Shown here: positions 4,597 through 62,518 of the stretch, piece by piece
Position numbering within the stretch: position 1 is the stretch's first letter
How the letters are laid out: every line of letters begins with the position of its first letter
From: Prolixibacteraceae bacterium
GTDB lineage: Bacteria; Bacteroidota; Bacteroidia; Bacteroidales; Prolixibacteraceae
DNA: 64,000 nt
NCBI GenBank assembly: GCA_036504555.1
Contig: DASXUZ010000080.1
Coordinates: 4,003 to 68,002 of the forward strand
Direction: 5' to 3'
The notes under the pieces: generated by a model
Told to the model about the DNA's origin: nothing
The model's database searches: none
The model's input: the letters and a program-made list of their open reading frames with translations, nothing else
Position numbers and translations under genes: made by a program

Positions 4597-4625
4597 ATTT
4601 ATTTTTGCCAATACTACCAGCACCC

Positions 4626-4747
4626 TATGCCAGGGCTATTGCATCTGTAATCTATCTGTAATCTATCTGTAATGTATCTGTATTCTATAATACAGATACA
4701 TTACAGATAGATTACAGATAGATTACAGATGCAATAGCCCTGGCATA
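4626..4747. repeat. Perfect 122-bp palindrome (59-bp arms, 4-nt loop CTAT) built from 11-bp units ATCTGTAATCT
   Basis: Arm 4626-4684 is the exact reverse complement of 4689-4747. Each arm holds about 4 tandem 11-mers. Confidence 0.97.
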
Positions 4748-4830
4748 AGGCCTTGGTAAAAAAATGCTGTGGCAATTTGACATCCATGGTCATCTTAAAA
4801 TCTAGAATAAAATCAGGGTATTTATTTTTC

Positions 4831-14261: not shown

Positions 14262-14433
14262 TTGCACCGTTTGCACGATTTGCACGATTTGCACGCCTGA
14301 TAGTTTTATTTGATCCAGTTCAATGGTTTGTTCTTTTGAGAAAGGGAAAGTAGAAAAAGGGAGAAAATGTAAATCGTGAGAATCATGCAAACCATGCAAA
14401 TCGTGCAAAACGTGCAAAACGTGCAAAGTGCTC
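14262..14433. repeat. Foldback element family 1, copy A: 4x TTGCACGAT-like 9-mers, spacer, 7 inverted 9-mers
   Basis: TTGCACCGT TTGCACGAT TTGCACGAT TTGCACGCC ... TGCAAATCG TGCAAAACG TGCAAAACG TGCAAAGTG CTC. Homologous over its whole length to 37426-37569. Confidence 0.92.
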
Positions 14434-22867: not shown

Positions 22868-23384
22868 TTCTTTTTAAATCCATTGAACCGCGCAAAGATT
22901 CAACCCTCCAGTACTTGAAAGCTTATTCAGAAATAACCGCCCAGATGAAACTGTATCATTGGCAGAATTCATGTGGCGGCCTATCTATTTTAAGAAGCCT
23001 GTCAACTCCACAATACGCCTGGTTTTATATCGTCCCAGCTTTTCCCATTCTTCAGATTCATTCAGTCCTGCTCTCGTCGCTGGTCAAAATATTGCGCCAA
23101 CACTTCCGAAATCCACAAATTGGCTTCTCAAATACTCCCTTAAGTACCATCACCAACCAGTAGCTTGATTAGTTTCAGGAGCCTATCGGCTTCCCTTTCC
23201 CTTCCTGTAATCTTTATTGTATTACAAACGGATAAGCTATTCGAATGAATCTCTCCTGCCTGAGCTAATTTCAAAAACACTCCTTGTGATTTATCACCGA
23301 AGTGTATCAGTCTTCGGCTTTAATCTCCTATCAGTTTTTGGCAAGTTCCTGTCAAGGCCCGACTGTCTTTACATTGTTATTTGG

Positions 23385-23488
23385 CAGTTAGTTTTTATAT
23401 CCCTCATGGATGGTTCATACATGGTTTATGGATCTAAACATACACAAAGCATGCACGAACTATGCACGAACAAAGTAAAAACCATGAA
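23385..23488 (-). repeat. Foldback element family 2 (104 bp), copy A
   Basis: The minus strand reads TTCATGGTTTTTA CTTTGTTCGTG CATAGTTCGTG CATGCTTTGTG ... TAAAAACTAACTG and aligns without gaps to 61173-61276. Confidence 0.9.
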
Positions 23489-23565
23489 ACAAACAGCAAC
23501 AAAACACCCACCAAACCCTGGCAGAGGGTCTGTCAATTGAGCGCAGGTAAAGGCCTGGAATAATT

Positions 23566-37354: not shown

Positions 37355-37425
37355 AGCTTCAGTTGATTTTTGGTTTTGAGATTCCAAATGTAATGAAAAA
37401 AACTATTTTGTAATTTTCATCATTT

Positions 37426-37569
37426 TTGCACACTTTGCACGATTTGCACGATTTGCACGGCTGTTGTTTTTAATCAATTTTGGTTCAAAGACTTGTTTTT
37501 TTGAGAAGGTGGAATAGAAAAGAGAGAAAATGCACATCGTACAAAACGTGCAAATCGTGCAAAGTGCTC
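37426..37569. repeat. Foldback element family 1, copy B (4 + 4 nine-mers)
   Basis: TTGCACACT TTGCACGAT TTGCACGAT TTGCACGGC ... TGCACATCG TACAAAACG TGCAAATCG TGCAAAGTG CTC, with the same central spacer as copy A. Confidence 0.92.
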
Positions 37570-44634: not shown

Positions 44635-44798
44635 TGCAGAAAAGCCTCTGAGCTTAACGGGATCATAAAAAACACCTTGCACTTATTTCCCCCAACCAAA
44701 ATTTGCTATTGCCACAACGGATCTTGTTTAGTGAAACATTGACCCCATGCCTGTGGCATTTCCTGAAGCTGTCAGGTAGGTCTTTGACTGCTGTCCGA

Positions 44799-44902
44799 TT
44801 CATAGTTTTTACGCTCTTCGTACTAGGTTCGTGCATGGTTCGTGCATGTAAACATACATAATCATTGCAGGATCATGGTATCAATTCAGTAAAAACCAGG
44901 TA
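44799..44902 (+). repeat. Foldback element family 2 (104 bp), copy B
   Basis: TTCATAGTTTTTA ... GGTTCGTGCATGGTTCGTGCATG ... TAAAAACCAGGTA; ungapped alignment to copy C. Confidence 0.88.
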
Positions 44903-44970
44903 TCAAACACAAGCCTGATAGCAGCAGATCATTTCCTAAACATGAATTGGAAGGATCGAAAAAAATTTGA

Positions 44971-56464: not shown

Positions 56465-56535
56465 GCAATAACTACAATAACTTCAATAACGACAACAATG
56501 CCAATCGTAGTTATTGAAGTTATTGAAGTTATTGC
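56465..56535. repeat. Foldback of 9-bp units (CAATAACTT x3, 13-bp spacer, inverted x3)
   Basis: The 29-bp arms 56465-56493 and 56507-56535 match at 27/29 positions. Confidence 0.9.
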
Positions 56536-56639
56536 AATTGAGTATTTCAGAGTCTATGGTTTTGCAAACCGTCGCCCGATTCCCGGAAAGGAAGCTATGA
56601 AAAAATAACCGGCCCTGTTGAGAAGCCGGCTATTTATAT

Positions 56640-60044: not shown

Positions 60045-60290
60045 ATGAAGTTCTATTCCTACGTTATATACTCGCAAACATCGGGTGCATTTTATTACGG
60101 TTATTTCGAAGATCTTGAAAAAGCACTCGAAATGCACAATTCAAACCTGATTTCACCCACCAAAGAGCGCGGCCCTTGGGTGCTGATGTATTCAGAAAGC
60201 TTTGAAACCCGGTTAAAAGCCATTCGGCAGATGAGTTTCTACCGATCGGTCAAAGGTCAAAGGTTTCTGAAAAATATGCTCAATTTCTAA
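60045..60290 (+). CDS. Small stand-alone GIY-YIG (UPF0213-like) protein, apparently lacking catalytic residues
   Basis: FYSYVIYS...FYYG..DLEKALEMHN...GPWVLMYSESFETRLKAIRQM follows the UPF0213 pattern. Confidence 0.8.
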   Translation: MKFYSYVIYSQTSGAFYYGYFEDLEKALEMHNSNLISPTKERGPWVLMYSESFETRLKAIRQMSFYRSVKGQRFLKNMLNF

Positions 60291-61014: not shown

Positions 61015-61172
61015 TGGCTTAAATCCTGTTGCACCGTCAGGAAAATACATGCTCCAGGATTTGAGCCAACTTACTGATCGATCATCCATTGAATAAATCC
61101 ATCCTATTTTGCCTGTCTTCAGCCTCGTGGATGGTTACATGAAGGATTCCCACCTATATGCTTATTGTTAGA

Positions 61173-61276
61173 TTCATGGTTTTTACATAGTTCGTGCATA
61201 GTTCGTGCATGCTTCGTGCATGTAGAGATATACAAACCATGCACGATTTATGCATAAATCATCTAAAAACCATGAA
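61173..61276 (+). repeat. Foldback element family 2 (104 bp), copy C, with perfect 13-bp terminal inverted repeats
   Basis: TTCATGGTTTTTA CATAGTTCGTG CATAGTTCGTG CATGCTTCGTG CATG...CATGCACGA...TAAAAACCATGAA. Confidence 0.93.
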
Positions 61277-61406
61277 CTGATCAACTGTGGAACACGGCCC
61301 AAGGCTGAATACAATAGCTGTGGATTGAGTGAAATCATCCTTCCATCAATCATCCAGGTACAATCAGATGGAGAATCAATGATGCGATCAAACTAAACTG
61401 TAGGAT

Positions 61407-62449: not shown

Positions 62450-62518
62450 TAAACACATAGGCACAGAGAAAACATAGAAAAAGAATTAAACTATGTGGCC
62501 TATGTATCTATGTGTTTA
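62450..62518. repeat. Imperfect foldback of 9-bp units (ACACATAG-like) with a 13-bp spacer, in the lacI leader
   Basis: TAAACACATAG GCACAGAGA AAACATAG / CTATGTGG CCTATGTAT CTATGTGTTTA. Confidence 0.7.

Follow-up and report, generated by a model that had tools for sequence, protein, structure and literature searches.

A dispersed family of 150-bp foldback repeats with one conserved arm of phased 11-mers in a Prolixibacteraceae genome

Three short inverted repeats lie in the 64,000-nucleotide stretch of Prolixibacteraceae DNA analyzed here (hereafter the window), which is part of contig C80 of an assembly of 5.24 Mb in 322 contigs with 42.7% G+C. T9SS sorting domains are part of the evidence that assigns the organism to the Prolixibacteraceae (Bacteroidota). 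A preliminary description of the window pointed out their equal length and 11-bp periodicity, and proposed a MITE, a REP-like family or a nucleoprotein site as candidates. Small palindromic repeats (REP, REPIN, MITE, Ssn-related) shape bacterial chromosomes, and those of the Bacteroidota are barely described. What kind of element are these repeats, and what has kept their copies alike?

Anatomy and conservation of the repeat

As reported before, the three copies align without a gap over 104 bp (copy A, 23385-23488, minus strand; copy B, 44799-44902, plus strand; copy C, 61173-61276, plus strand), and we found a mean column identity of 81%. These 104 bp had been taken for the whole element and the 13 bp at either end for its terminal inverted repeats. 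The perfect 13-bp inverted pair is indeed present in copy C, and only there; in copies A and B, about nine of the 13 positions match by manual count. When 27 copies from the whole genome (described below) were anchored on their conserved arm, between-copy identity exceeded the background of 0.27 across about 150 bp, symmetrically about the loop. The 104 bp are the core of a longer element, and the 13-bp ends are not its termini, since similarity continues beyond them on both sides and fades gradually over about 23 bp. By the identity profile and the alignment, copy C extends over about 152 bp (61149..61300, plus strand). TRF, the alignment and the profile together give the full extents of copy A (23361..23512, minus strand, with the conserved arm at about 23440-23474) and of copy B (44775..44926, plus strand, with the conserved arm at about 44812-44848).

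The element starts with an outer arm followed by four 11-nt units, the first of them degenerate; after a loop of 6 nt come the mirror images of these parts. Three to four units are found in the left arm across the family. In copy C, the conserved left inner arm (61186..61221, plus strand) carries three TTCGTGCA boxes at 11-bp spacing, corresponding to the three tandem 11-mers noticed earlier (TRF period 11, 3.3 copies). The loop lies at the symmetry centre of the MFE fold (61222..61227) and is followed by the right inner arm (61228..61262, plus strand). The repeat had been described as 11-mers with degenerate inverted partners; the left-arm array stands, but the pair table and the substitution counts identify the right arm as a decayed complement of the 11-mers and not as a true inverted set. 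In copy C the two inverted arms, each of 45 nt, show 80% complementarity.

The left inner arm is the sole strongly constrained part of the family. Mean pairwise identity between copies reaches 0.854 in this arm, as against 0.599 in the right inner arm, 0.557 in the outer arms and 0.556 in the loop, and the identity profile has its maximum within the left arm rather than at the hairpin foot. This bears out the idea that the phased boxes are under sequence constraint. The small differences among the three units occupy identical positions in almost every locus; because they are position-specific and common to the loci, homogenization within the array is ruled out, and they point to a position-specific constraint on the left arm. 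Departures of the right arm from the complement are mostly C-to-T, G-to-A and A/T changes, which is ordinary A+T-biased drift.

The length of the element is conserved as well, as had been supposed from the three copies: we detected no net shift in any of the 27 copies across the inner right arm, and none in 26 of the 27 across the outer right part. Between the anchor and the right half, at most one copy in 27 thus carries a net insertion or deletion, and on the left side the copy on contig C82 has one extra 11-nt unit. Set against an estimated 1,000 or so substitutions, and with an expectation drawn from general knowledge of bacterial indel rates, this deficit of insertions and deletions is striking. 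The constraint on element length is real.

The foldback is a property of the whole family, since 73.7% of the cells pair in register, far above the 33-44% obtained with partners slid by one to three columns. Covariation over the whole hairpin is weak (73.7% paired vs. 72.2% in shuffles). In the inner stem it is no better than in column shuffles, and in the outer stem it is modest (67.8% paired vs. 63.9 ± 1.2), a value reached by none of 500 shuffles. A conserved consensus hairpin was rejected because RNAalifold returned no conserved long hairpin for the family and inner-stem covariation stayed at shuffle level. By eye, the Bacteroidota promoter motif was found inside the element in a handful of copies only.

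Distribution, history and superfamily of the repeat

The preliminary description expected many more copies genome-wide from the three in the window, and proposed a search with the consensus. Both blastn and iterated nhmmer returned the same 27 loci in the 5.2-Mb genome. All have E-values of at most 1e-22 on the better strand, and the next match, with filters off and E up to 100, has an E-value of 1; from this sharp gap, the 27 loci form a discrete set without a decayed tail. The expectation of a larger family was therefore correct, but not the density that the window suggested: 27 copies correspond to 0.33 per 64 kb, so that the window is unusually rich in them (P about 0.005).

With crude ORF-based gene calls on a fragmented assembly, all 27 copies are intergenic at an 80-aa cut-off, except for three with short overlapping ORFs that we took as spurious, and 24 of 27 lie in spacers at a 100-aa cut-off. 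Convergent spacers hold eight of the 24 classifiable copies, as against a background of 14-17% (P = 0.02-0.04), and divergent spacers three. In the window, the flanking ORFs are convergent at copies A and C, as had been observed, and co-directional at copy B, and each copy lies downstream of a gene and co-directional with it. No such rule was found genome-wide: relative to the upstream gene, the two orientations of the 27 copies divide 17:10, the ratio is 6:6 in co-directional spacers, and orientation is random with respect to GC skew (16/27) and to the majority gene strand (13/27).

Outside the 27 foldbacks, the assembly contains neither further clusters of the box sequence nor a solitary box array at any promoter. 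The family is absent by blastn from 18 genomes of the same genus and 12 of the same order, and a two-box pattern, run against 300 further Prolixibacteraceae genomes, matched no more than three times, each time by chance. We did not find any member among the plasmids and phages searched, nor in metagenome contigs, where two chance matches fell in high-GC coding DNA; exact 24-mer and 22-mer cores, searched more widely, gave nothing or chance matches inside high-GC genes. There was no Rfam match at the gathering score. Relaxed Rfam searches gave generic hairpins resembling microRNA precursors, on both strands, at 20-33 bits vs. cut-offs of 72-195. As far as we searched, the family is found only in this Prolixibacteraceae genome.

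A three-box pattern occurs in 16 arrays of unrelated bacterial and archaeal genomes (loci L118-L133), vs. seven for the reversed control. We rejected a relationship of these arrays to the family: because most are not foldbacks and the control gives seven, we take them as the base rate of 11-mer arrays containing TTCGTGCA. One of them, in a Terriglobales MAG (L131), is closely similar to the conserved arm and does not form a foldback.

The copies are related to one another in a star-like manner. Nearest-neighbour identity is 66-76% for every copy except those of a single pair (C195:19827-19953 and C280:32310-32438), which have 92% identity and at least 60 bp of left flank in common; there are no other near-identical copies. 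Since the flank is shared, this pair represents a segmental duplication that carried the element along, not a transposition. It differs by 8% in the element and by about 8%, from a manual count, in the common flank. Outside the conserved arm, the Jukes-Cantor (JC) distance between copies is about 0.65. This is slightly below the 0.80 that separates the four-fold sites of the neighbouring LacI-type gene, the one gene used, from those of the nearest sampled relative, and so fits a single burst after the split from that relative. Such a burst would also account for the lack of the family in relatives, of which the nearest one sampled has 84% identity in the neighbouring coding DNA, with an unalignable spacer and broken local synteny. 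Target-site duplications, which had been proposed as a check, were not detectable at any symmetric boundary: with k = 2-9, direct repeats appear in at most five of 26 copies, which is about chance, at low power for old copies.

This family is one old member of a superfamily of tandem-unit foldbacks. The preliminary description was right to see a repeat family, but the genome-wide superfamily was not visible from the window. TRF lists 606, 730, 672 and 671 arrays of period 7, 8, 9 and 11, respectively, vs. 228 of period 10 and 212 of period 12. For at least 389 arrays, a second array of the same unit lies in inverted orientation no more than 200 bp away. Their units are 7, 8, 9 or 11 nt long, with a single case of 10 nt, and belong to more than 100 word families; the TRF-based census misses the 27-copy family itself, whose right arm is too decayed. 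Convergent spacers hold 113 of 321 tandem-unit foldbacks (P = 3e-15), which are depleted between divergent genes. Seven relatives (G034, G033, G037, G042, G044, G016 and G013), sampled over about 390 kb (loci L098-L117), have three tandem-unit foldbacks vs. about 29 expected from the density in this genome, and none with 11-nt units. The bloom of foldbacks is thus lineage-specific, as far as sampled.

The 11-mer class, an operational group introduced in this work, comprises 143 cases in addition to the 27 studied here and is uniform: an arm has 3.8 units, the loop measures about 9 nt, and the arrays take up about 92 bp. The 27-copy family resembles it in its three to four left-arm units, 6-nt loop, intergenic position and covarying outer stem. 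The flanks of this class, unlike those of the 7-, 8- and 9-mer classes, are palindromic in a copy-specific way: a flank matches its own partner at 0.58 vs. 0.41 with those of other copies, and a quarter of the copies reach an identity of at least 0.75 over 24 nt. Insertion into hairpins that were already there, or outward extension of the palindrome by template switching, could have produced such flanks. Examples are found in the window at 4615-4758 and on contigs C124 (at 4034), C134 (at 21452) and C177 (at 25922).

Proposed origin, rival explanations and known systems

No cognate transposase had been seen in the window, and we did not find a partner gene in the whole assembly either (322 contigs; such a gene may lie in an unassembled part). 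We inspected the flanks of the Y1, GIY-YIG, PF13366 and PF05635 genes of the assembly. These genes were rejected as linked partners because none is flanked by TTCGTGCA boxes. Small genes between distant inverted arrays of abundant words were also rejected, being ordinary unrelated genes.

Several of these small genes do lie within other repeats. Inverted short-unit arrays bracket all four PF05635 genes, which encode the 23S rRNA intervening-sequence protein (C107:26858-27169, C29:211-522, C65:24633-24896 and C195:31365-31661), and two of the three PF13366 nuclease genes (C16:9064-9405 and C260:921-1271), the gene on C260 with three CACAGAG units of about 11 nt per side. Among the four Y1 HUH (PF01797) genes (C245:54153-54494, C154:13867-14208, C283:21572-21913 and C66:13819-14088), three are flanked by repeats other than the 27-copy family, one of them on both sides by inverted arrays of the tandem 9-mer AACCTTAGT and the others by hairpin repeats; the fourth has no repeats. 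One of the four Y1 loci is broken; translation of the three intact proteins gave a DH[VI]H motif and a Y-x3-Q-x2-HH motif that is full in two and ends in QH in the third. As judged by these motifs, they appear to fit subclass 1.2 of Quentin et al. (PMC6006769), which was reported to lack REPs, whereas three of the four genes here are flanked by hairpin repeats or AACCTTAGT arrays.

The window also encodes a stand-alone GIY-YIG-like ORF of 81 aa (60045-60290; PF01541 at 31 bits), the only small one in the genome, and there are no repeats in its flanks. The nearest family copy is copy C, about 880 bp away and beyond another gene. PF01541 is matched once more, within a reading frame of 604 aa on contig C4.

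The explanation that we favour, although we hold its chances to be about even, is a selfish, non-coding and non-autonomous foldback, similar to a REPIN or MITE, which spread in one ancient burst and of which one arm has been kept, probably as a protein recognition site. The family would have reached its approximately 27 intergenic sites in that one episode, once its lineage had parted from the nearest sampled relative, and the copies would have stayed in place since. A trans-acting, sequence-specific protein reading the phased TTCGTGCA boxes may have moved the element. The likeliest mover would be a small nuclease or transposase like those nested in sister foldbacks (PF13366, PF05635, Y1), whose gene would now be unlinked from the family, lost or unassembled. 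Preservation of one arm and of the exact element length presumably continues, through selection or through recurrent gene conversion around the boxes, while the complementary arm drifts towards A+T; such preservation suggests that the boxes are probably protein-bound even today. Against this reading are the lack of near-identical copies, the fuzzy ends, the lack of a box-bearing partner gene and the weak covariation over the whole hairpin. In addition, a pure fossil does not predict a four-fold slower change in one arm together with few indels, so that present-day function or conversion must be added; the indel deficit and the one-sided conservation are left unexplained by the simple fossil model.

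A related possibility, and a rather improbable one in our judgement, is that the foldback was domesticated, selection having held one arm (the three TTCGTGCA boxes) and the 150-bp length at 27 loci since the species separated, as a putative protein-binding network. If so, the network would serve chromosome structuring, replication-associated processing or 3'-end control, and the 11-mer foldbacks more broadly would represent a type of element not yet described, one that gains palindromic flanks specific to each copy.

We ranked the selfish foldback above a host operator network, an RNA element and a classical MITE. Winged-helix response regulators bind 11-bp-phased direct repeats head-to-tail, and 11 bp is close to one helical turn of DNA. 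The phased TTCGTGCA boxes could accordingly be candidate operators or architectural sites for a protein bound head-to-tail on one helix face, the 27 loci being a regulon or a nucleoid-structuring network and the palindromic remainder being secondary or a leftover of mobile origin. The one-helical-turn spacing agrees with this, as do the position-specific conservation of one arm only, the fixed length, and the persistence of the copies for about as long as the species has been separate. We nonetheless consider it unlikely. Convergent genes flank one third of the copies and divergent genes three of 24, the opposite of what operators would lead one to expect; box arrays at promoters are wanting outside the 27 foldbacks; orientation follows no rule relative to neighbouring genes (17/27). 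The same architecture recurs with unrelated words hundreds of times in the genome, which argues for a common generative process rather than many regulons.

Function at the RNA level is a more doubtful proposal. REP sequences of E. coli can stabilize or terminate upstream mRNA, and the repeat could act likewise as a long hairpin, or as a multicopy small RNA in which the conserved arm is the working part. It would fit that 11 nt is one turn of an A-form helix, that all three copies of the window lie downstream of and co-directional with a gene, and that the plus strand folds more stably (mean -33.6 vs. -27.0 kcal/mol; 20 of 27 copies), with many G-U pairs where the right arm has changed from C to T. 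Yet the better folding of the plus strand and the G-U excess follow from A+T-biased decay of the C-rich arm, and with orientation being random (17:10 relative to the upstream gene, 6:6 in co-directional spacers), we rejected a strand-specific RNA structure. The consensus has no T-run after the stem, RNAalifold and the inner stem give no sign of a conserved long hairpin, and the Rfam matches are generic, far below threshold and on both strands.

Among the candidates first proposed, a dispersed intergenic family with constrained length and boxes is well founded, but the marks of a MITE are missing. A classical MITE would derive from an IS by deletion and be mobilized by a DDE transposase with several sub-terminal binding sites in each inverted end; multiple phased transposase-binding sites are well known in transposon ends (IS21, Tn7, Mu ends). 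The small size, the inverted ends with repeated sub-terminal boxes and the intergenic spread are in line with this. However, the longer autonomous element with the same ends that would be looked for is not in the assembly, nor is any other box-bearing place, and direct repeats at the boundaries are at chance level (k = 2-9, at most five of 26 copies), although with low power for old copies. With ends that are not clearly sharp in addition, this reading is left without its defining marks, and copy-specific palindromic flanks of the kind seen in the 11-mer class are not expected from cut-and-paste transposition. We regard it as improbable. We find it harder still to credit that divergence does not reflect age, the copies having passed through an error-prone, substitution-only templated copying step (an RNA or single-stranded intermediate) that restored the box arm. 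Substitutions without indels, an invariant arm beside variable sequence and star-like relations would all result from such a step, but the substitution spectrum is that of ordinary A+T-biased drift and not of a targeted process, element and flank of the C195/C280 pair differ alike (8% vs. about 8%), and no reverse transcriptase or similar gene is linked to the family.

Among known systems, the REP, BIME and REPIN sequences with their RAYT proteins (PMC3116915, PMC2817692, PMC6006769) come close to the selfish foldback that we favour: they are short, palindromic, non-coding and extragenic, with inverted halves that form a long hairpin, are enriched at gene 3' ends, lineage-specific and free of target duplications, and Y1 genes with repeat arrays are present in this genome. 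Yet REP and REPIN sequences have a GT[AG]G (or CGTC) foot, whereas the consensus of the 27-copy family has no conserved foot at either end. A REP is one hairpin, while the arms here are four tandem 11-nt units. REPs flank their own single-copy Y1 (RAYT) gene, and none of the four Y1 genes is flanked by the family. REPINs have a master sequence and many identical copies, unlike this old star-like set with its 66-76% nearest neighbours, and conservation of one arm only also sets the family apart.

The Ssn nucleases are encoded by a small gene inside NTS/SRM hairpin repeats (PMC11893778). Similarly, PF05635 and PF13366 genes lie here between inverted repeat copies, with the repeat far more numerous without the gene. 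In the Ssn system, however, the repeats flank a small GIY-YIG gene (cd10448), while the 27-copy family does not bracket any gene and the GIY-YIG ORF at 60045-60290 is unflanked; the SRM hairpin motif of that study is not present in the sequence of copy C. The convergent GGGAATC heptamer arrays of Xanthomonas (Rehm et al. 2015, PMC4692102) are intergenic, can form stem-loops and are commoner between convergent than between divergent genes. They share with our family the dispersed intergenic pairs of convergent short-unit arrays and the preference for convergent genes, but consist of 7-nt G-rich units in variable number, as opposed to 11-nt units, about four per arm, in an element of fixed length with extra outer arms. 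The long inverted arms of short tandem sub-repeats in the FB and Galileo transposons of Drosophila (PMC3573991, PMC4168063) offer an analogy only: these are eukaryotic, kilobase-scale elements that depend on a P-superfamily or FB transposase, and there is no evolutionary link to the family.

Bacterial MITEs such as the Correia elements of Neisseria, the pneumococcal RUP and the enterobacterial ERIC occupy intergenic positions, measure 100-160 bp, end in inverted repeats and are often transcribed together with neighbouring genes. Their terminal inverted repeats are defined, and they come with target duplications (TA for Correia) and cognate IS families; for the 27-copy family we found nothing of the kind.

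Within this genome the foldbacks form a natural series that begins with young, near-perfect ones and ends with the old 27-copy family, in which one arm and the overall length survive about 0.65 substitutions per site between copies. Survival of one arm separates what the cell, or an enzyme of the element, still reads from what spread alone needed. As a 33-nt probe, the conserved arm gives a concrete means of identifying the protein. If the reader is a small gene product of the sister foldbacks (PF05635, PF13366, Y1 subclass 1.2), the family would help to assign its function.

Other foldbacks in the window and in relatives

Four tandem-unit foldbacks lie in the window (4615-4758, 14262-14427, 37425-37566 and 56465-56539). 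The one at 4615-4758 is a near-perfect palindrome with 70-nt arms that are 94% complementary and contain 11-mers of the ATCTGTAATGT type. It is one of at least 34 near-identical foldbacks genome-wide, and a young counterpart of the 27-copy family. Those at 14262-14427 and 37425-37566 are built of the 9-mer TTGCACGAT, which is repeated a variable number of times around a conserved spacer of about 70 nt, and belong to a family of about 16 copies in the genome. The heptamer TCGTGCA is common to this 9-mer family and to the 27-copy 11-mer family. We rejected it as the sign of a common reader, because by a rough estimate about one such coincidence is expected among some 100 unit families.

Just upstream of the LacI-type gene, at 62450-62518, we observed a short imperfect palindrome with CTATGTG-type words, which may be a member of the ACACATAG 8-mer family (11 foldbacks). 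In the nearest sampled relative, a different foldback with CACTTTAGACA-like units, partly N-masked, lies downstream of the orthologous LacI-type gene in the equivalent spacer (locus L012, G044:C362, about 1200-1500), and in two other relatives this spacer contains long tandem arrays of about 22-44 nt.
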